The position numbers were made by a program, and so were the translations under genes. A stretch of 64,000 nucleotides of DNA, taken from assembly GCA_003599625.1 (NCBI GenBank), contig QZIU01000008.1:1690-65689 (forward strand), given 5' to 3'. This document shows, one piece after another, positions 3,192-22,089 of this stretch. The stretch comes from Candidatus Parcubacteria bacterium (lineage in GTDB: Bacteria; Patescibacteriota; Minisyncoccia; UBA9983). The notes beneath the pieces were generated by a model. It was not told the origin of the DNA and made no database searches. It saw only the letters and a list, made by a program, of their open reading frames with translations. The stretch's first letter is position 1, and each line of letters begins with the position of its first letter.

Positions 3192-3266
3192 GGTGGCTAT
3201 AGTTTAGTGGTAAAACTCCGCTCTGTGAAAGCGGTATCGAGAGTTCGATTCTCTCTAGCCACCCCA
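3192..3266 (+). tRNA. tRNA-His (anticodon GTG) with encoded G-1 and CCA
   Basis: Extra 5' G before the acceptor stem gtggcta/tagccac, anticodon loop ctGTGaa, and CCA encoded at 3264-3266. Confidence 0.8.
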
Positions 3267-3268
3267 TC

Positions 3269-3337
3269 GGGTTGTAGTACCAGCCTACCGGCAGGCAGGT
3301 ACCGGTAGTACGCACGTTTCGGGGTTCTCAATTTTCT
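3269..3337 (+). pseudogene. Degenerate partial copy of the tRNA-Pro 5' half, interrupted by an 18-nt GC palindrome
   Basis: gtagta...ggtagtacgcacgtttcgggg mirrors the D-arm/anticodon-arm sequence of the downstream tRNA-Pro but cannot fold as a tRNA. The palindrome cctaccggcaggcagg is inserted. Confidence 0.35.
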
Positions 3338-9784: not shown

Positions 9785-10237
9785 TTTAGGTCTGATTGAC
9801 CCTGTATTCCGTTTCTGCCATAATATGCCCTAGACTCTGATTTTATTAAGGAAACGCCCGGAACAATTCCGGAGTTATCCACAGTTATTATTTGCGCGAC
9901 TTTTTTTTGCGGTTTATAATAATATTTAATAATCAGAAAAATGAGAAACGGATAGGCAGCGATGATGGCCCGGAAGCGTGTCTGACCTTTGAAAATCAAA
10001 TAACGATGGATGCATTAAAGATCATGGAAAGAAATTGCTGAATTTCAGAATTGAAAACTTCAATTAGAATTCGATTGAACAGATTAATTAGATTATTGGA
10101 TAATTGCGCGAAATATTCGGTTTTGTCGAAATCGGATCAAATTCGCGCGAGAAGTAATTTCGCTTTCGGTCGCGGCTAATAAAAAGCCGCAACAAAGTTC
10201 ATGAAGGCGAAGTTATATTAAGAGATTAGAAAACATT

Positions 10238-13907: not shown

Positions 13908-14597
13908 ATGACCAAAAAAATTATTTTAATTACCTTATCAATTCTCCTGTTTGGATCGGTAGGCTTTTATATCAAAGAAAATATTAAAAACAGTAAGGAG
14001 GCAGCTCAAAAAAACGGCAACAAAACTCAGAATAATAATCCTGGCATAGTTGTTGAGGGAAACGGCAATTATGAGGTTAAAAAAATTGATTTGCCTAAAA
14101 ACTTCGAAAATATAGATAAAATTCCGATGCCTGATTTAGATAAGCCGATCATGGCTCTGCCTGGCGTTGATGATATAACTCTAAAATTCGCGACGGAAAA
14201 GATCAAAGAAGTAACAACCAGATTAAAAGCAAACAAATATTCTCTGGAAGATTGGTTGATCTTGGGAGTTCATCGCAAAACCATAGAAGATTACGAAGAA
14301 GCGAGGACAATATGGACATACGCCGGCCTTGCCTGGCCCCAAAATGAGAGATCTTTCCATAACCTCGGCGAGCTTTACGGATACTACTTGAAAGATTACA
14401 AAAAAGCCGAAGAAAATTACAAGAAAGCCTTAGAAAACAACCCTTCCGCCATTTATATTTACCGCAATTTTGCCGATTTCTACCGCTTTGTTATCAAAGA
14501 TAACACTAAAGCCAAAGCTATTCTTGAACAGGGCATTGCCGCCAACCCCGGCGAAGCTCCCCTCGACCTCCAAAATCTTCTCAAGGCCATAAAATAG
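13908..14597 (+). CDS. Membrane-anchored tetratricopeptide (TPR) repeat protein
   Basis: N-terminal TM helix followed by repeated W-LG-Y/A-F-P TPR-like 34-residue patterns. Confidence 0.65.
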   Translation: MTKKIILITLSILLFGSVGFYIKENIKNSKEAAQKNGNKTQNNNPGIVVEGNGNYEVKKIDLPKNFENIDKIPMPDLDKPIMALPGVDDITLKFATEKIKEVTTRLKANKYSLEDWLILGVHRKTIEDYEEARTIWTYAGLAWPQNERSFHNLGELYGYYLKDYKKAEENYKKALENNPSAIYIYRNFADFYRFVIKDNTKAKAILEQGIAANPGEAPLDLQNLLKAIK

Positions 14598-14608
14598 CTG
14601 TTCATAAT

Positions 14609-15146
14609 CTGTGTATAACTCATCCAACCCTGCCTACCGGCAGGCAGGCCGCCGGGTTGGAATTACCGATTTTCTAAGCTATAATCCCAGGCATGGGAAA
14701 TATTTACCATATCTTGAATCGGGGGGTTAATAAAGATCCGATTTTTCTCGGCACTAACGACTATTTGCGTTTTATCTACTGTCTTCATCGCTTCAACAAT
14801 CGCGGTCGCAGGCTTGGCGAAAGAGAAGATCCGAAGGAATACCTCAAAGACCCTCCTCCTCAAGACAAACTGGTCAATATTCTAAAGTGGAGCCTGATGC
14901 CGAATCATTATCATATTCTGGTTGAAGAAGTGGTCGAAGGAGGCGCGCTTAAATTCGTCCAGCGGGTTATCGCTGGTCTGATTATTTTTTAAGTGTTGGG
15001 AGCAGGGAGTTCCCGATGATAAGCGACAAAGAGGCCTTTTTTGAACTGTATGAAACCAACGAAGAAAAATATCTCGACAGCTTCCACGACTGGCTTGTGG
15101 AAAACCTGTGAACAACTCAGTCATGCCTGCCGGTAGGCAGGTTGGA
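14609..15146 (+). mobile_element. Minimal IS200/IS605-family-like element (~540 bp): Y1 HUH transposase gene bracketed by two REP-like subterminal hairpin sequences
   Basis: The left hairpin repeat lies at 14609-14662 and the right hairpin repeat at 15096-15146. Between them is a single tnpA-like ORF with a HUH motif. The size is typical of tnpA-only IS200 elements. Confidence 0.55.
14693..15111 (+). pseudogene. IS200/IS605-type Y1 (HUH) transposase, frameshifted near the T6 run at 14981-14990
   Basis: Frame 2 gives YHILNRGVNKDPIF...LMPNHYHILVEE (HUH motif). Frame 1 continues with DYFLSVGSRE...EEKYLDSFHDWLVENL, whose ~20-residue tail resembles the C-terminal end (…YIENQ-like) of this tnpA family. 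Whether a catalytic Tyr is retained was not verified. The two pieces are in different frames. Confidence 0.6.
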
Positions 15147-15266
15147 AAAGAGAATTTAACTTGTTTGGTTGTCAAAAATTCAAAATTTTGGCAAGTTGGG
15201 AAATAACCCTTTAGTAAAGGGTTATTTTTTTGTCAAAATTTTAGAAATATTTTATCTCGGTTTGGT

Positions 15267-15956
15267 ATGATAGAATTAATTAATCAAGTCTTATTCAAAA
15301 AAATGCTAAAGTTTATAAAATTAAATCTTACAAAAATAAAATACGCTGGCAATTCCGTTGGCCGTGATATTAGAGTAGAGATTGAAGCCTTTGGAAAATT
15401 TTTCCGAGTTGATAAAAGAATTAAAGCGGGAGAAGCAAAAAGTATTGATCAAGAAATCTTAAGATTAGAATCAGATCAGGATGTGTTGCAATCAGATCTT
15501 GCCATAGCAGTCATCGAAAAAGATTTATTGTTTAGCGATACCGGCGCGCTGAAAAGCAGCATTAAAATCGATGTTGCCTCGGAGAAGTCACAAATATTCA
15601 GGTTTAATGTGGAGGTAAAGGAAAGCCGTTCGCTGTTGAGCAAATTATTCTGGGGCGGCAGGAAAGCCGTTTTCGAACTTGAATTTGAAGCGATAATCGG
15701 AGATGTCGAGAGATATATCCCAAATACGAAGGATGGCTGGTTTTTGACATTGGATAATAAGGATGACAATGCGTCATTGCCGGAATATCTAAAGTTGATC
15801 TTAAGGTATGAAAAGGGTGGACGTGAATCTGGGTTGGTTTCTGCGGGCTGTATCTCTATTGCAGAAACTGAGCGGTGGATGGAAATATACCGCACTCTTA
15901 TCAAAGCGCGCAAAGGAGATAATAGAAGTGTCGGTGTTTTAAAGGTTGTTGATTGA
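15267..15956 (+). CDS. Hypothetical protein
   Basis: ORF only. Its start codon lies 121 nt downstream of the REP-like copy at 15096-15146 that ends the IS200-like element. Confidence 0.4.
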   Translation: MIELINQVLFKKMLKFIKLNLTKIKYAGNSVGRDIRVEIEAFGKFFRVDKRIKAGEAKSIDQEILRLESDQDVLQSDLAIAVIEKDLLFSDTGALKSSIKIDVASEKSQIFRFNVEVKESRSLLSKLFWGGRKAVFELEFEAIIGDVERYIPNTKDGWFLTLDNKDDNASLPEYLKLILRYEKGGRESGLVSAGCISIAETERWMEIYRTLIKARKGDNRSVGVLKVVD

Positions 15957-16749
15957 TATTTCTATGCCTGGAAAATCTTTTTCAAAAGCCATTGCAATGA
16001 TTTTTGGGATAATTATCGCAATTTCTTTTTTGGCATTTGCTCTGCGTTGGAATAAAAAAGAAGAGGTTTCTCAGGTGGCAAAGCAATTAAGTCTGCCAGT
16101 TATAAGCTGGAAAAAAATTACCATAGAGAAGGAACCAAAAAAGTTCTTAATAAGCTTAAGGGTTCCCGAGGTGGCTTTTTACACCAATGATTCCTTGGCC
16201 GAAAAAATTAACGAGGATGTTGATAGATATATCGGAGCATTGAAGGATACTTTTATTCGAGGTGTCATAACTGCCGCCGATGATAACGGGGAAGCAAGCA
16301 CTCTCAATATCGATACGGAAATATTGCTTATGTCACCGCGTTTGATTTCCCTGGCTTTTACATCATCAGACCATCTGTCTGGCGGCAAAGTCGGCGACCT
16401 CGAGCGAACATATCTTATTTTCGACCTTGAAAAGGGCGAAATGATGAGGGAGGGAAACGAACTGTTTCGCGATGATTTGGCTTGGGCGGAAGCGGTAAGA
16501 ATAATGAAGCCGCTGCTGCTTTCTAAATATGACGGAGAACCAAGCTGTGATCTGATGTTTGCCCCGAAACGGGAAGCTTTCTCGGCCTCTTGCATCGGAG
16601 TTGATTACAACAATGAAGATAAAGGTCCTTTTTCTATATTCGGAGATATCCCAATTTCCGCAATCCAAGAATTTGTCGCTCCATGGGCGTTAAAAGAGAT
16701 TTTCCAACCCGGCGGGTTGGATGAGTTATCCACAGGTTTTCCACAATAA
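15946..16749 (+). CDS. Hypothetical membrane-anchored protein (possibly DUF3298/RsiV-like extracytoplasmic domain)
   Basis: N-terminal TM helix. The last 12 codons are supplied by the inverted REP-like copy at 16702-16746. Confidence 0.35.
   Translation: MLIDISMPGKSFSKAIAMIFGIIIAISFLAFALRWNKKEEVSQVAKQLSLPVISWKKITIEKEPKKFLISLRVPEVAFYTNDSLAEKINEDVDRYIGALKDTFIRGVITAADDNGEASTLNIDTEILLMSPRLISLAFTSSDHLSGGKVGDLERTYLIFDLEKGEMMREGNELFRDDLAWAEAVRIMKPLLLSKYDGEPSCDLMFAPKREAFSASCIGVDYNNEDKGPFSIFGDIPISAIQEFVAPWALKEIFQPGGLDELSTGFPQ
16702..16746 (-). repeat. REP-like element copy in inverted orientation (contains TTATCCACA)
   Basis: The reverse complement matches ttgtggaaaacctgtggataactcatccaacccgccgggttgg. 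Confidence 0.7.
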
Positions 16750-16855
16750 GGGCTGCTTGCAAATTATGGACTTTAGAAAGATTTTATCTCGGTTTGGTAA
16801 GATGGAATCGTTTTTATTTTTACTTTTAAAATAACGACAAAAATGAGAAAATGAA

Positions 16856-17512
16856 TTGGAAGTCGAAATTAGAAAATTAAACAAATTTAAAATGAAACTT
16901 TTCAAAAAGATAATCATAAGAGCGGTATTGGTAATAGTCATTCTCTTTATTGGTCTGGTAATCTATCGCATTCCTCATGTGATAAAGAAAAGTAAAACAG
17001 AAGAATTGGTTGCAAAAATCCATAACACGAAACTCGTCATGGACGATGTGATGGGCAAGAATTTGCCGCCCGATCCGGGAATGGAAGCGGATAAGACGGT
17101 CCAAGGAATCGATGCAAACCAAAACGGCATCCGAGACGATGTGGAGTTGGCCATCTTCAAAGAATATCCGAATTCGGCCAAAACCAGGGCGGCGCTTTTG
17201 CAATATGCGTTGGCGTTGCAGATGGAGATGAGTCAGTCGTTTCTGAATACAGAAGTGGTGATTGCGGCGATACAGGAGGCAAGCAGAGCTAATATTTGTG
17301 TTGCCGATACTCTTGTACCAAGGAAAAGTCCTGAATCTGCGAGAGAATATTCCGACTTAGAGAAAATCGATAAATATATTGATTTTGTTGAAAAAAAGCA
17401 GCTTAACACGGATGAAAGAAAAAGATTTAGAAAAGAGTTTTATAAAAAAATTGGAAGTTATAACTCTTTGCCGCATGTTTGCGATATTGATTATTCGTTG
17501 CTAGTAAATTAG
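16856..17512 (+). CDS. Hypothetical membrane-anchored protein
   Basis: N-terminal TM helix. No conserved motif recognised. Confidence 0.4.
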   Translation: MEVEIRKLNKFKMKLFKKIIIRAVLVIVILFIGLVIYRIPHVIKKSKTEELVAKIHNTKLVMDDVMGKNLPPDPGMEADKTVQGIDANQNGIRDDVELAIFKEYPNSAKTRAALLQYALALQMEMSQSFLNTEVVIAAIQEASRANICVADTLVPRKSPESAREYSDLEKIDKYIDFVEKKQLNTDERKRFRKEFYKKIGSYNSLPHVCDIDYSLLVN

Positions 17513-17514
17513 GA

Positions 17515-20500
17515 ATGAATCGTTTAGGCTTTATGAAAATATTTTCGTTAATTTTTTTAGGATTTTTCCCTGTGTTTAATTTTGTTTCAGCAAGCGAGAT
17601 TAAGTGTTCTGCCACAGGCTATTCAATCTTTGCTATAAACGGGATTTTTGTTGATGAAGACGAAGCAGATGACAATAAAACCGCACTTGAAAAAATTCTA
17701 CCTCCTTCCTTCAACAATCAACCCATCACCGTCGACTATCTCCACAACCCTTCTCATCTCGCCGGTCTGGGGGACTTGGTAAAGGTTGTATATCAGAAGA
17801 TCTTCGAATACGAGACGGTGATGGACTATGATCTGGTGGAAATGATCAGAGACGCCAGCGAGAAGGTGAAGACGCAAAAAGTCCTTCTCGTGGCTCACTC
17901 CCAAGGAAATTTCTACGCCAACAGTTTCTACGGCAGCGTGGCCGGAAAAGAAGGGGGTGTCCCCAAAGAATCCATAGGCGTTTACGCCGTCGCCACTCCG
18001 GCCGCAAGAGTGGCCGGAGAAGGGGGTTGGCTTACCTCCGACACCGACAAGGTCATCGCCGGCCTGATGTCGAAATTCCCGTTCAAACAAATCATGCCGC
18101 CCAATGACAGCATTGTCTTGAAAGAAGGCGATGATGAAATGGGACACAATTTTTCCCTCGTGTATCTCAAGTATAGCGGCGGAAAAATTGTCTCCGATAT
18201 CCAATCCTCTTTAAGTAAACTAACCTCAAGCGATGTTCAAGAGGAAGAAGAGAATTGCATCGATCCTCCGAAGATAACTTTGGCGCATAAGACCACGGGG
18301 GCGCTATTGGGCGTCTCCGACTTTGCCGGAGAATCGGTTGTCGATGCCGCCAAGGTTGTGGGAGAAAAATCATATCAACTGGGTTCATTGGCCGTAAAGA
18401 CCACCGAGCAAGTGGCTTCGGCGATAATAAAGGCTCCGGCTTTGATTTTAGGAGGTGGCCAAACTGATAACTCGGCCGCCGTCGCGGGGAATCCGGGAAA
18501 TTCCCAACCTGAGCCTGCTGAAAACTCTGCGGGTGGGCTGGAGTCTGTTGAAAACTCTGCAGTCCTGCCTGGTCGTCTTCGACCTGCCCGCCAGCCACTC
18601 TTCGCTGGCGATAGCGGGCGGGGAAGGTCGGCAGAGTTTTCAACAGGTGAAGTTGCTTCTAGGACTGCGGAGTTTTCTGCGGGAGACTCTACTAGCGAGC
18701 TGTGGAAAACTTCGCTCACCTTGCAGGTTGAAGACAACCAGCCAGGAGAGCGAAGTTTTCCACAGCCCCTTCGATCAAGAGGTTCGAATTTTTCCTCAAT
18801 CGCCCAACTCCAAAATTCTTTGGATGAGATGAGAAGACAAGCCGAGGCTTTGATGGAAGCGGAGAAGGGTGCGAAAAATGATCAAGCGGCTGAAGCTGAA
18901 GCCGCGACTCGCCAAGCCTCCCGTCCAACCCTTCTCTTCCTCGGTCCTCTGTATCCCGGCTTTGGCGGTGGAGCAGCTCCGAGTCAAATATCTCTTGTCT
19001 CAGAATCGAATCAACAGGAAGAAGAGGAAGAAGAAGAACAAGAGCCGGACTCTCTTTCGGCCCCGAATCTTCTCGTCCCTCAATGCGATTACTCTTTGGC
19101 TACGGACGGCTGTCTCCTCGCCACAACCACCGTATCATTTTCCTGGCAAGCCGTTTCCGGAGCTAGTCATTACGCCGTAAGCAAAAATGGAGAATACGCC
19201 ACGACCACGGAATTAAATTTTGTCGCAAACATCCCCGATTTCTCCGATTACAATTTCTCCGTCTCGGCCTCGTCGGCCGCTATCAGCCCCGCTTCCAGCG
19301 GGACAAGCACTCAAACTGTCTCTGTCGCCACTATTCCAATTGCCATAAACGAGATCGCCTGGATGGGAACAACCGCCTCTTCCTACGACGAATGGCTGGA
19401 AATCAAAAACAATACAAGCCATACGATAGACTTGTCTCAATGGGCCATAGAATCCCAAGACGGCCTGCCATATATCGCTCTTTCCGACGCGATCGGTCCG
19501 AAAGAATACCTTATCCTTGAAAGAAGGCAAGACGCGATAATCGTAAATCAATCCATCATTACCTACGGCACCGGAGCTTCCCAATGGGCGATGAGCAACA
19601 GCGGCGAAGAGCTTATCCTTTCTCATTCCTCCACCACGCTGGACAGAACCCCATCCGTAGCAGGCGAATGGGCCGCCGGAGACAGCGCAACCAGAAAAAC
19701 GATGGAGCGCGTCAATCCCAAAGGATCAGGAACCGATCCTTCCAACTGGACCACTTGGGGGGCAAATATCGATTTCATCAAAAGCGGCGAAGACACCGAT
19801 AATAACTCAATCTCCGGCACGCCCGGCCAATGCAATTCCGCAAGCTTCATCAACATCAACAACGGCCAAAACATATATCAGGATCTCACCCTTGAAAAAG
19901 ATAATTGCTATTATGTTTCAGAGAATATCCAAGTCTCGGCCACATCAACTCTTGCAATCGAATCCGGCGTTCAAGTCAGTCTTTATCTGAATAATCTTGT
20001 CGTCAACGGTGTCCTTGATGCCGAGGGGGAAGAAAGCAATCCGATAGTTTTCGATTCTTTTTCCGAAAATCCGACAACAAACAGGATAAGGATAAATAAC
20101 GATAACGGAACCAGTACAATGACCAATGTCGTTATCTCAAACACGGGAGGAATCAGGTTGAACAACGGAGCCGATCTGGAGATAACCAACGCGGAATTTA
20201 TCAACAACAATGCCAGCATCGAACTAAACAACAACAGCTCGGCGGAAATTGAAAACGTGACTTTCGCCAGCACCACGAATGAGGCGATCGCGGCGTACAA
20301 TGGCAGCAGTGTTTCTGTCGCTTCTTCCACTATATCCAACACCATCAACGCCGACGCTATCGGAATATACGATTCCAATCTATCGATGTCTTCGACAACG
20401 ATAGACACCGTTCTTGGCGGCGACGGCATAGGCGTTTATGATTCGACAGTTTCCATAGCCAGCTCTACGATCAGCAATGTTTTAAACGGAGATGGCATCA

Positions 20501-20715
20501 CCGCGTATCATTCAACCGTATCAATATCGACTTCCACAATAAGCGACATATCGAGCGAGATGCCGGCAAGAGACGGCATTAGTCTTTATGATGAATCTGT
20601 CGCGACTGTCCTAGACGCGGTAATCGAAAATGTCTCCGGCGAAGGTATAATCGTTTCGGAAGACAGTAGTATCTCCGGCAACGCGATAATAGAGGGGGAG
20701 GAAGTGGAGTTCTAG
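17515..20715 (+). CDS. Secreted multidomain protein: N-terminal alpha/beta-hydrolase (lipase-like) domain, GC-rich linker carrying an inserted palindromic element, lamin-tail domain (LTD), C-terminal right-handed beta-helix repeats
   Basis: Signal peptide. Nucleophile-elbow-like VAHSQGN is present. The LTD signature INEIAWMGT...DEWLEIKN...GEELIL is present. There are ~10 repeats of the xxISNTxxxDGIxxYxS beta-helix type. Confidence 0.75.
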   Translation: MNRLGFMKIFSLIFLGFFPVFNFVSASEIKCSATGYSIFAINGIFVDEDEADDNKTALEKILPPSFNNQPITVDYLHNPSHLAGLGDLVKVVYQKIFEYETVMDYDLVEMIRDASEKVKTQKVLLVAHSQGNFYANSFYGSVAGKEGGVPKESIGVYAVATPAARVAGEGGWLTSDTDKVIAGLMSKFPFKQIMPPNDSIVLKEGDDEMGHNFSLVYLKYSGGKIVSDIQSSLSKLTSSDVQEEEENCIDPPKITLAHKTTGALLGVSDFAGESVVDAAKVVGEKSYQLGSLAVKTTEQVASAIIKAPALILGGGQTDNSAAVAGNPGNSQPEPAENSAGGLESVENSAVLPGRLRPARQPLFAGDSGRGRSAEFSTGEVASRTAEFSAGDSTSELWKTSLTLQVEDNQPGERSFPQPLRSRGSNFSSIAQLQNSLDEMRRQAEALMEAEKGAKNDQAAEAEAATRQASRPTLLFLGPLYPGFGGGAAPSQISLVSESNQQEEEEEEEQEPDSLSAPNLLVPQCDYSLATDGCLLATTTVSFSWQAVSGASHYAVSKNGEYATTTELNFVANIPDFSDYNFSVSASSAAISPASSGTSTQTVSVATIPIAINEIAWMGTTASSYDEWLEIKNNTSHTIDLSQWAIESQDGLPYIALSDAIGPKEYLILERRQDAIIVNQSIITYGTGASQWAMSNSGEELILSHSSTTLDRTPSVAGEWAAGDSATRKTMERVNPKGSGTDPSNWTTWGANIDFIKSGEDTDNNSISGTPGQCNSASFININNGQNIYQDLTLEKDNCYYVSENIQVSATSTLAIESGVQVSLYLNNLVVNGVLDAEGEESNPIVFDSFSENPTTNRIRINNDNGTSTMTNVVISNTGGIRLNNGADLEITNAEFINNNASIELNNNSSAEIENVTFASTTNEAIAAYNGSSVSVASSTISNTINADAIGIYDSNLSMSSTTIDTVLGGDGIGVYDSTVSIASSTISNVLNGDGITAYHSTVSISTSTISDISSEMPARDGISLYDESVATVLDAVIENVSGEGIIVSEDSSISGNAIIEGEEVEF
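18510..18775 (+). repeat. GC-rich palindromic MITE/RPE-like element(s) inserted in frame in a coding region (16-bp TIR ctgttgaaaactctgc at 18546/18631, core cgacctgcccgcc...ggcggggaaggtcg)
   Basis: Local GC content far exceeds the genome background. Nested inverted repeats are present. The core is shared with 21309-21429. Confidence 0.6.
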
Positions 20716-20724
20716 CCATGATTT

Positions 20725-20770
20725 CCTGTGGATAAACCTGTTGATAACTCAGCCAACATGCCGGGTTGGA
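20725..20770 (+). repeat. REP-like element copy between convergent genes (cctgtggataaacctgttgataactcagccaacatgccgggttgg)
   Basis: Family match. Overlaps the last codons of the minus-strand glycosyltransferase gene. Confidence 0.65.
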
Positions 20771-22089
20771 ATGAGGGAATATGCCGCGATGGTGTCGTCT
20801 AGCATTTTCTGGAGGGAGAATTTTGACAGGATTTTTTGGCGAAGATTGGCGGCGAATTGCTCGCGAAGATTTTTATCTTCCATCAGCTTTTTAATCGCTT
20901 CGGCTAGGGCTTCAGGATTTTTGGGTGGCGCCAAAATGCCTTCTTTTCCGTTATCTATGATCTCCGGTATGCCTCCGACGCTGGAAGCAATAACCGGCAA
21001 TCCGGCCAAGCCGGCTTCAAGTAACAGATAAGGCAGGCCTTCTTTGACGGAAGGCAAGACAAAAATATCAAGGGCTTTAAGATAATTGGCCGAGTTCGGA
21101 TCAGACAATTCGTTTTTACCGATTATAAAAAATTTATCTCCAATTTCGTAATTCTTGATTCTTGATTCATAATTCTTTTTTTCTTCCCCCCAGCCAATAA
21201 GGATAGTCGTCAAGCGATAGCCTCTAGCCGCTAGCGAATGGATCGCTTCGATCAAGTTTATGTGTCCTTTGTTTTTGGTAAACTCGCCAATGGTGCCGAT
21301 AAGGTGGTCTGATAAATTTGCCGACCTTCCCCGCCCGCTATCGCCAGCGAAGCGTGGCGGGCGGGCAGGTTGAAGACAACCAGCTTGCCCCGCCAAATAC
21401 GGCGGGGGCAGGACTTCAAATTTATCAGACTGCGATTTATAATTTGCCGCAAGCTCCTCTCTTGCCCTTTCTTTTTCCAAGAAATTATAATCCTCCTGTT
21501 TGATTCCGTTATGTATTACTGTCATTTTTCTTGCCGGAGCGATTTTGTTTTTTATCGCCTCTCTATAATCATTTTCCGAGACACAGATTATTTTGTCGTA
21601 AAAAAGACAAGTCAACCTACTGATCATTTTTATAAGTATGTTTTGCCAGCGGAGCCGGTCTTCGAGAAAGGCCCAACCGTGAACTGTAAACACAGTGGAA
21701 AGTTGAAAGTGGAAAGTTGAAAGTTTATAAACAAAACAAGCCAATCCCGCAGCTCCGCCTGCTTTGGAGCTGGACACATGAACAATGTCAGGCCTTGTTT
21801 TCAAAAGAAGAAAAAAAACTTCAACAGAAGAAAAAATATCTTTTAAGAAATTTACATTTCTTTGAAAATTTTTAATTTCAAAATAGGGCAAGTTGGCCCC
21901 TGTCAGCCTTTGGGCCATCAGGCCTCTTCCGCCTCCCGCGATAATCGGCTCAAATTGATCCTTTGGCAGATTTGTCGCCAGGTCGAAAACATATTTCTGA
22001 GCCCCGCCCCAGACCGACTTGGTTATGATATATAAAACCTTCTTTTTCGTTGATTTTTCGGGCATTTTATTATACCGTAAGGATACCAT
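20749..22089 (-). CDS. Glycosyltransferase family 1 (GT-B fold; GT4-like)
   Basis: C-terminal EGLPYLLLEAGLAGLPVIASSVGGIPEII motif. Carries two in-frame repeat insertions (21309-21429 and 21695-21726). The start (22089 or 22065) overlaps the divergent neighbour. Confidence 0.8.
   Translation of the reverse strand: MVSLRYNKMPEKSTKKKVLYIITKSVWGGAQKYVFDLATNLPKDQFEPIIAGGGRGLMAQRLTGANLPYFEIKNFQRNVNFLKDIFSSVEVFFLLLKTRPDIVHVSSSKAGGAAGLACFVYKLSTFHFQLSTVFTVHGWAFLEDRLRWQNILIKMISRLTCLFYDKIICVSENDYREAIKNKIAPARKMTVIHNGIKQEDYNFLEKERAREELAANYKSQSDKFEVLPPPYLAGQAGCLQPARPPRFAGDSGRGRSANLSDHLIGTIGEFTKNKGHINLIEAIHSLAARGYRLTTILIGWGEEKKNYESRIKNYEIGDKFFIIGKNELSDPNSANYLKALDIFVLPSVKEGLPYLLLEAGLAGLPVIASSVGGIPEIIDNGKEGILAPPKNPEALAEAIKKLMEDKNLREQFAANLRQKILSKFSLQKMLDDTIAAYSLIPTRHVG
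21309..21429. repeat. Second copy of the GC-rich palindromic element, with 12-13-bp TIRs (tctgataaatttg/caaatttatcaga)
   Basis: Core ccgaccttccccgcccgctatcgccagcgaagcgtggcgggcgggcaggttgaagacaaccagc is near-identical to the reverse complement of 18583-18634. Confidence 0.65.
21695..21726. repeat. Heptamer-periodic tract (gtggaaa gttgaaa)x2, 28 nt plus gttt, inside the GT gene
   Basis: Direct reading. Encodes STFHFQLSTV in frame. Confidence 0.8.

Follow-up and report, generated by a model that had tools for sequence, protein, structure and literature searches.

A probable decayed REPtron-like core with a truncated RAYT-like gene in a contig of Candidatus Parcubacteria

Positions 14597-15146 of a Parcubacteria contig are best explained as the decayed core of a REPtron-like element, and this reading is held with good though not full confidence: two palindromic repeats enclose a RAYT-like (TnpA_REP-class) Y1/HUH gene. 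The window, i.e. the whole stretch of DNA analysed, comprises 64,000 nucleotides of contig QZIU01000008.1 (assembly GCA_003599625.1). The locus itself would represent the ordinary decay of a domesticated transposase with persisting repeats, as known from E. coli. The following features were located in the window (strand in brackets).

14597..14664 (+): left flanking repeat unit, copy B; nhmmer 14597-14644, E 1e-11; boxes CTGTTCATAAT and CTGTGTATAAC, hairpin CCAACCC...GGGTTGG
14631-14650 (+): nested palindrome TGCCTACCGGCAGGCAGGCC, 20 nt, inserted in the hairpin loop of copy B
14657..14685 (+): promoter-like site TTGGAA-17 nt-TATAAT, 10/12 positions in a consensus scan, ending 8 nt before the ATG; a consensus match alone
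14693..14992 (+): N-terminal remnant of the RAYT-like gene; profile positions 9-104, HxxNRG and HUH motifs, family HMM E 2e-32
14959..14976 (+): junction of deletion and frame change, placed at about 14965-14980; from the profile coordinates of both frames and the translations
14965..15111 (+): C-terminal remnant in the +2 frame; profile positions 171-215 (WS.Y...FFELY....Y...F.DWL), family HMM E 1.7e-6
15094..15146 (+): right flanking repeat unit, copy C; nhmmer 15094-15142, E 2e-13; boxes TTGTGGAAAAC and CTGTGAACAAC
15124-15141: nested palindrome TGCCTGCCGGTAGGCAGG, inverted relative to that of copy B; replaces the left hairpin arm of copy C and is followed by TTGGAAAA
2985..3032 (+): solo copy A, 48 nt, upstream of a tRNA-Leu/His/Pro cluster; nhmmer E 1e-13
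~3280-3299 (+): third nested palindrome AGCCTACCGGCAGGCAGG, inside a partial tRNA-Pro duplicate (3266-3336)
16701..16748 (-): solo copy D, inverted; nhmmer E 2e-15; ORF 15946-16749 takes its final 16 codons and its stop from it
20724..20774 (+): solo copy E; nhmmer E 3e-13; located between two converging genes, 17515-20715 (+) and 20749-22089 (-)

Remnants of a RAYT-class gene

The open reading frame 14693-14992 on the forward strand has 99 codons (99 aa). It contains YHILNRGVNKDPIF and the HUH motif MPNHYHILV and stops within ATTATTTTTTAAG, at a T6 run, as an earlier note on this DNA had described. The translation reads MGNIYHILNRGVNKDPIF...WSLMPNHYHILVEE...VIAGLIIF-stop, and the protein is 100% identical to P0001, deposited at NCBI as 'hypothetical protein C4572_00860' of the source MAG. 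In the alignment, its HUH motif, MPNHYHIL at residues 69-76, falls on the N-H-x-H that is invariant in the family and on PEHMH of 4ER8. From 14953 on, the +2 frame is open; it translates into AGYRWSDYFLSVGSREFPMISDKEAFFELYETNEEKYLDSFHDWLVENL with the end ...GYRWSDYFLSVGSREFPMISDKEAFFELYETNEEKYLDSFHDWLVENL, and stops at 15109-15111. The earlier note had seen in this tail a likeness to the C-terminal end of the tnpA family; the family profile, which it matches at the positions given above, shows the two frames to be the ends of one Y1/HUH gene.

Profile positions 105-170, about 66 residues, are missing from the window gene according to both the family HMM and the alignment. They comprise the GYTxYFNxxxxRxGxLFQG strand region and the Tyr-x-x-x-Asn helix. 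The catalytic tyrosine on this helix after strand 4, invariant in the relatives (Y134 of P0003, equivalent to Y115 of 4ER8), is part of this missing segment. Translated in frame 1, the junction bases give RVIAG (profile ~100-104); in frame 2 they give GYRWS (profile ~171-175). They form a small palindrome, CCAGCGGGTTATCGCTGG (CCAGCG-GGTTAT-CGCTGG), which was listed by the terminator scan. A single -1/+1 frameshift, either inactivating or programmed, had been proposed to explain the two frames. Joining them yields 140 aa that lack profile positions 105-170 and the catalytic tyrosine, which a frameshift cannot restore; a programmed frameshift was rejected for the same reason. The T6 run is merely the first stop reached in the wrong frame. 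With about 66 codons gone, including those of the catalytic Tyr and the metal-ligand Asn, and the remaining ends out of frame, the window gene is dead as a nuclease. The loss was probably recent, since both remnants are still recognisable and free of stop codons. In an annotation, the two ORF fragments should appear as one pseudogene, and the flanking repeats should not be read as ends of an insertion sequence.

ORF 14693-14992 alone scored 16.5 bits against Pfam Y1_Tnp (PF01797; gathering score 23) and 14.6 bits against NCBIfam REP_Tyr_transpos (cut-off 80). As the ORF is below the gathering score, membership in the Y1/HUH superfamily was established via its relatives. A word-indexed protein search yielded four of them, three at full length (214-225 aa, 43-46% identity), and the nearest database proteins are 43-51% identical to the window ORF. 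An exhaustive phmmer search with P0003, one of these relatives, retrieved 7145 cluster representatives (50% identity clusters) at E<=1e-3, typically 210-250 aa long. Among 50 aligned relatives, 43 matched Pfam Y1_Tnp at E<=0.01 (best 3.7e-12). NCBIfam REP_Tyr_transpos was matched by 47 (best 2.6e-14) and transpos_IS200 by three; the scores of family members lie under the curated cut-off of the NCBIfam RAYT model. With a profile built from the 50 members, the search found 4ER8 (E. coli TnpA_REP) first among PDB sequences, followed by ISDra2 TnpA. The predicted fold matches 4ER8 and the transposases of IS608, ISDra2 and IS200. The Y1/HUH character recognised in the earlier note is thus upheld by profile matches and predicted fold.

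The residues invariant in the family include the HUH histidines and Y134/N138 (P0003 numbering). The latter pair aligns with Y115 and N119 of 4ER8, the catalytic tyrosine and a metal ligand, respectively (PMC3479197). Intact relatives have 214-230 aa and stand nearer to TnpA_REP than to the TnpA of IS200, and the predicted structure contains about 75 confidently folded residues beyond the Tyr helix. The C-terminal 80 aa of the clade gave no match to Bac_DnaA_C or HTH. On the strength of the invariant residues and the profile matches, the clade is classified as a Y1/HUH family of the RAYT class, extended by about 75 C-terminal residues. Truncated or frameshifted copies recur in it. One example is P0005, a 99-aa fragment on locus L009 of another metagenome, which diverges from the 225-aa P0002 past the HUH motif.

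Palindromic repeats in the window and at related loci

In the 48-nt repeat unit, a G+C-rich hairpin of 7-8 bp comes after two 11-nt boxes in tandem (TGTGGAWAAC). Its consensus is TTGTGGAAAAC-CTGTGGATAAC-TCAG-CCAACCCGGCGGGTTGG-AAAA. An nhmmer profile of the five copies found precisely these five and nothing further at E <0.1 in the 64 kb, and a 20-mer from the unit had 4 matches at <=3 mismatches, compared with 0.00 expected in shuffled sequences. The copies are 74-92% alike and all fall inside 18 kb. The two bracketing repeats of about 50 nt noticed earlier are real, but their boundaries had been drawn a few bases too narrow. The three solo copies noticed with them were all recovered. Copy B is placed after the stop of an upstream TPR gene, and copy C begins on the last codons of the gene (L-V-E-N-L-stop). 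The right hairpin arm of copy B is the -35 hexamer of the TTGGAA-17 nt-TATAAT site, by consensus match the best promoter-like site of the region.

Folded as single-stranded DNA, the hairpin cores of copies B and D are clearly better than shuffles (z = -2.7 each; -13.3 kcal/mol for copy B), and copies A, C and E fold weakly. Units B and C are in direct orientation; the palindromes nested within them are mutually inverted. Close inverted pairs of the REPIN/BIME type are not present in the window, where the nearest inverted copies are C/D at 1.55 kb and D/E at 4 kb. A terminator-like structure is formed by one copy only, on the minus strand of D, where a T run follows the hairpin. The 1.55-kb C-D segment was considered as a tandem duplication and rejected, as neither of its two ORFs is a paralogue of the gene downstream. 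Rfam matched three tRNAs in the window and nothing else.

The nested palindrome (TGCCTRCCGGYAGGCA) occurs in the loop of copy B, in copy C and in the partial tRNA-Pro duplicate. The palindromes appear to belong to two generations, with the nested one as the younger. A search for TGTKKATAACTCAKCCAAC in 185,579 species genomes, a set that does not include the source genome, gave 26 single matches in unrelated taxa, as produced by chance, and the longer repeat pattern had no match in the metagenome scan. In 83 related loci, no nhmmer match to the 48-nt unit was obtained at E<=0.01; judged by this search, the unit is specific to the source genome.

The flanking position of palindromes was compared among 80 metagenome loci with relatives and the contigs of the closest homologues, with 130 nt 5' of the start set against the stop region. 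Of 78 loci, 64 had a palindrome common to the 5' flank and the stop-codon region that outscored the 95th percentile in a control of mismatched loci, and the median score of the shared palindrome was 21 in loci and 8 in the control. The sequence of the flanking palindrome varies from locus to locus, and its orientation is mixed among the relatives. As a rule, 5-30 nt separate the left palindrome from the ATG; the right one overlaps or abuts the stop codon. The closest homologues display the flanking palindromes plainly, and the geometry in the window is identical. Flanking palindromes are a trait of the family. Further copies occurred elsewhere in 29 of the 64 loci, with a few kb available per locus. 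A third copy lies within the coding sequence, in a variable loop near residue 59, in a quarter to 40% of the loci. Among the 280 hairpin feet of 140 flanking hairpins, GTAG was found in none and CGTC in one.

The repeat unit also carries two DnaA-box-like 9-mers 11 nt apart, TGTGGAAAA and TGTGGATAA. The pattern TTWTNCACA occurs 14 times in the window (7.1 expected), about half of the occurrences being within repeats. Perfect DnaA-box 9-mers, TTATCCACA, cluster beside hairpins. At 9855-9885, a separate hairpin is followed by GTTATCCACAG. Near the related genes, DnaA boxes are enriched 16-fold relative to all other DNA and about 3.4-fold relative to other intergenic DNA. An origin of replication with a DnaA-box cluster was rejected for the window: no dnaA is among the genes identified in 1-23 kb, and the cumulative GC skew rises without a turning point.

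History of the locus and competing explanations

An intact gene at the orthologous position was found in three related metagenome contigs, with 228 aa in L101. The upstream genes for a large surface protein and a TPR protein are common to the window and L101, L104 and L088, and the downstream gene (homologue of 16856-17512) to the window, L101 and L108; each of these contigs has the family gene in intact form. The exact protein P0004 occurs on 18 contigs, always in one context. The family HMM detected no second family gene in the 64-kb window, and no close paralogue of the window protein was found among 5.8 billion clustered proteins. An insertion sequence would fit less well than a REPtron-like arrangement, single-copy and vertically inherited, since the intact gene holds the same syntenic position in three related contigs. 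The remnant is 39% identical to the L101 orthologue, whereas the neighbouring genes are 52-77% identical to theirs; a replacement by a different lineage at this locus may have occurred. The hairpin of the window, CCAACCCGGCGGGTTGG, shares its loop with those of L101, ATCAAGGCGGCGCCTTGAT, and L104, ATCAAGGTTCAACCTTGAT, and at 4 of 8 stem pairs both bases differ. The homology of these flanking hairpins is merely suggestive, because any two palindromes aligned at their centres show paired changes by construction.

Among the competing explanations, the one that fares best considers the 48-nt units as host modules (pairs of DnaA boxes beside a hairpin, terminators or promoter elements) unrelated to the Y1 gene; it is unlikely. 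It would account for the pair of DnaA-box-like 9-mers in the unit and the surplus of TTWTNCACA, for the separate hairpin with GTTATCCACAG at 9855-9885, for the -35 box supplied by the right arm of copy B, and for the perfect boxes, which are also raised in other intergenic DNA of the related loci (0.20 per kb). However, both flanking positions match those of the locus-specific palindromes in the relatives, and the hairpin is the putative counterpart of the L101/L104 flanking hairpins at the orthologous locus. A box lies near the gene in only 12-17 of about 80 related loci, only copy D is terminator-like, and the window has neither a dnaA gene nor a turn in GC skew.

Even less credit can be given to an artefact of assembly or binning, such as a repeat collapse or a minority variant, that would simulate the deletion and frame change in a gene still intact in the organism. 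In its favour, the contig comes from a MAG, the junction lies inside a small palindrome, and two stop-free remnants with good family-profile scores are expected if the loss is either very recent or unreal. Against this, the sequence bears no mark of a join (Ns, visible coverage break), and defective copies such as P0005 recur in the clade. The loss of tnpA_REP with retention of its flanking repeats is documented in E. coli (PMC3333891).

The least probable reading, to be given hardly any weight, is that of the earlier note, a minimal IS200/IS605 element whose tnpA carries one possibly programmed -1/+1 frameshift at T6, with left-end and right-end hairpins and PATE- or MITE-like solo copies: the direct orientation of the flanking units like LE and RE, the fold shared with IS608, ISDra2 and IS200 transposases and a right repeat that overlaps the stop codon, as ends of insertion sequences often do, are in its favour, but the joined frames lack the catalytic segment, intact relatives have 214-230 aa instead of 130-155 aa, the syntenic locus recurs in three other contigs, the gene is present in one copy in the window without a close paralogue among the clustered proteins, and the profiles prefer REP_Tyr_transpos (47/50) to transpos_IS200 (3/50).

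For the decayed REPtron-like core, a course of events can be proposed by analogy to E. coli TnpA_REP and IS608. The intact enzyme would have bound the folded hairpin on single-stranded DNA. Cutting and rejoining nearby could have seeded the solo copies at 2985, 16701 and 20724, and the same activity may also have seeded the younger nested palindrome at 14631, 15124 and ~3282. After the death of the gene, the repeats would have stayed as fossils. Some of these putative relics now appear to serve neighbouring genes: copy B gives a -35 box through the right arm of its hairpin, and copy D the final codons of ORF 15946-16749.

Beyond the single locus, the remnants point to a very large, little-described RAYT-class clade (7145 clusters at 50% identity) in bacteria of the Candidate Phyla Radiation (CPR). 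Nearly all that has been established on RAYT and REP biology comes from Proteobacteria. No paper linking CPR or Patescibacteria with REP or RAYT was found in the open-access literature searched. It is conceivable, albeit doubtful, that the clade comprises CPR-wide RAYT-like genes with a three-site hairpin layout, in which one locus-specific palindrome recurs 5' of the ATG, across the stop codon and within the gene. Provided that the intragenic site has a function, the gene would be a target of its own enzyme, by autoregulation or a self-limiting excision. If true, DnaA-box modules of the type TGTGGATAA beside the hairpins would link the elements with the replication initiator, or with a part of the enzyme that binds such boxes. 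With its peculiarities, i.e. the lack of a GTAG tag, the overlap with the stop codon, the intragenic cognate palindrome and the DnaA-box-like neighbours, the clade offers new test cases for hairpin recognition by Y1 enzymes and for their control by the host.

Comparison with known systems

The insertion sequences of the IS200/IS605 family (IS200, IS608, ISDra2) and their gene-less PATE derivatives share the catalytic superfamily and fold with the clade. In both, hairpins flank the gene and the chemistry presumably takes place on single-stranded DNA; in the window the outer units are direct, their nested palindromes are inverted, and across the relatives the orientation is mixed. In contrast to these multi-copy, horizontally mobile elements with transposases of 130-155 aa, the gene described here is single-copy and at a fixed syntenic position, and the profiles of its relatives prefer RAYT over IS200 (47 to 3 of 50 members). 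Ends defined by guide and cleavage tetranucleotides are a feature of those insertion sequences and are counted as a further difference.

Quentin et al. (2018, PMC6006769) describe subclass 2.1 of TnpA_Y1, or TIRYT: proteins of the RAYT class whose C-terminal domain is Bac_DnaA_C-like. A RAYT-class core with a conserved C-terminal extension is shared with the clade, and a thematic link to DnaA boxes is given here by TTATCCACA beside hairpins. Subclass 2.1 has terminal inverted repeats and neither REP hairpins nor DnaA boxes (PMC6006769), in which the clade differs. The C-terminal 80 aa of the clade, unlike those of subclass 2.1, match neither Bac_DnaA_C nor HTH.

The closest comparison is the REPtron. 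Its example in E. coli K-12, yafM (PDB 4ER8), is reportedly a tnpA_REP (RAYT) gene flanked by REP/BIME, as Nunvar is said to have described in 2010. The association of tnpA_REP with REP/BIME has been treated (Ton-Hoang, 2012, PMC3333891; Messing, 2012, PMC3479197), and a REPtron comprises one gene only, kept at a conserved locus with its repeats on either side (PMC3333891; PMC5581495). Several traits set the clade apart. The GTAG/CGTC tag at the hairpin foot is absent, the C-terminal extension amounts to about 75 aa of extra helices instead of about 25 aa, an overlap of the right palindrome with the stop codon is usual, and in many members the coding region contains a third palindrome copy. 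The host belongs to the CPR bacteria, and the clade scores under the NCBIfam RAYT cut-off. In the window, the flanking units are direct, not inverted. Five copies of the unit are known, from 64 kb, and a high genomic copy number is a defining trait of REPs. On the other side stand the HUH motif and the Y-x-x-x-N helix together with a C-terminal extension past the IS200 core. As in the REPtron, short G+C-rich palindromes bracket the gene and also occur solo; the analogy to REP/RAYT systems drawn in the earlier note fits in this respect. Finally, both are represented by a single gene at a conserved chromosomal locus, and in both the gene has been lost with the flanking repeats kept.

Palindrome copies in and around the RAYT-like genes

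Besides its two flanking copies, the locus-specific palindrome has a third one within the RAYT-like gene itself; this holds for at least 17 of the 64 related loci (drawn from L036-L115, metagenome loci encoding relatives), counting only scores that exceeded the maximum of a mismatched control. A looser criterion, an 18-mer with at most two mismatches, yielded an intragenic copy in 25-29 of the 64. The position is conserved at a median of residue 59, 506-545 nt upstream of the stop codon, and corresponds to a variable loop of low confidence in the structure model. The orientation relative to the flanking copies differs among the loci, and three of them carry an additional intragenic copy about 215 nt upstream of the stop. 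No intragenic copy is present in the window remnant (14693-15111). Examples of the intragenic palindrome are:

L101: 3124-3146
Further loci: L036, L059, L061, L064, L072, L080, L089

In the contigs of the closest homologues, L007 and L008, the stems of the flanking hairpins are direct, while the 5-nt loop is inverted (TCGCA versus TGCGA). It looks as if the loop had been flipped by itself, leaving the stems unchanged. The hairpin pairs are located at:

L007: 199-225 and 876-905
L008: 120-147 and 780-805

The 5′ flanks of many relatives in L036-L115 contain a TATAAT or TACAAT hexamer just 5-15 nt upstream of the ATG, and GTATAAT is among the top enriched 7-mers there. The window shows the same arrangement, with TATAAT ending 8 nt upstream of the ATG. 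This short distance suggests that transcripts of the RAYT-like genes are leaderless or near-leaderless in the relatives and the window.

DnaA-box 9-mers at the hairpins

A perfect DnaA-box 9-mer (TTATCCACA/TGTGGATAA) adjoins the hairpins or makes up their stems, in the window as well as in related loci:

Window: 2998, 9875, 16726, 20727
Related loci: L041, L044, L054, L062, L081, L083, L084, L094, L097, L099

Perfect boxes reach a density of 0.68 per kb within 150 nt of RAYT-like genes; intergenic DNA elsewhere has 0.20 per kb and coding DNA 0.025 per kb. TGTGGAT ranks second among the 7-mers enriched in the gene flanks. The repeat unit of the window holds two boxes spaced 11 nt apart. A DnaA-like domain was not found in the RAYT-like protein. 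A separate small hairpin, CCGGAACAATTCCGG, at 9855-9885 is followed immediately by GTTATCCACAG. It is intergenic, upstream of a large surface-protein gene, and its hairpin-plus-box arrangement matches the layout of the window repeats.

Other palindromic and repeat-bounded DNA of the window

The spacer between tRNA-His and tRNA-Pro (3266-3336) is a partial tRNA-Pro duplicate, whose would-be D-loop is interrupted by the 20-nt nested palindrome CCAGCCTACCGGCAGGCAGG. A 1.55-kb segment (15150-16850), missing at the syntenic loci L101 and L108, is bounded by repeat copy C (+) on one side and copy D (-) on the other. It is also bounded by a 37-nt direct repeat (15240-15276 and 16772-16808, 92% identical), which looks like a duplicated promoter. 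Its two ORFs, 15267-15956 and 15946-16749, gave no Pfam matches and showed no paralogy with the downstream gene.

Long G+C-rich palindromic elements lie in frame inside two ORFs:

18545-18766: in a 1066-aa LTD/beta-helix protein (17515-20715)
21307-21430: in the interdomain linker of a two-domain GT4 glycosyltransferase (20752-22089, minus strand)

The two elements share an inverted 74-nt stretch with 91% complementarity, and the CTGTGGAAAAC and CAGGTTGAAGACAACC motifs found in them resemble parts of the 48-nt unit.

The G+C content is 35-39% in the long same-strand gene cluster at 24000-60000. It amounts to 40-51% in the first ~23 kb (1-23000), and to 45-51% there outside 8-10 kb and 14-18 kb. 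All palindromic repeats of the window are confined to these first ~23 kb.
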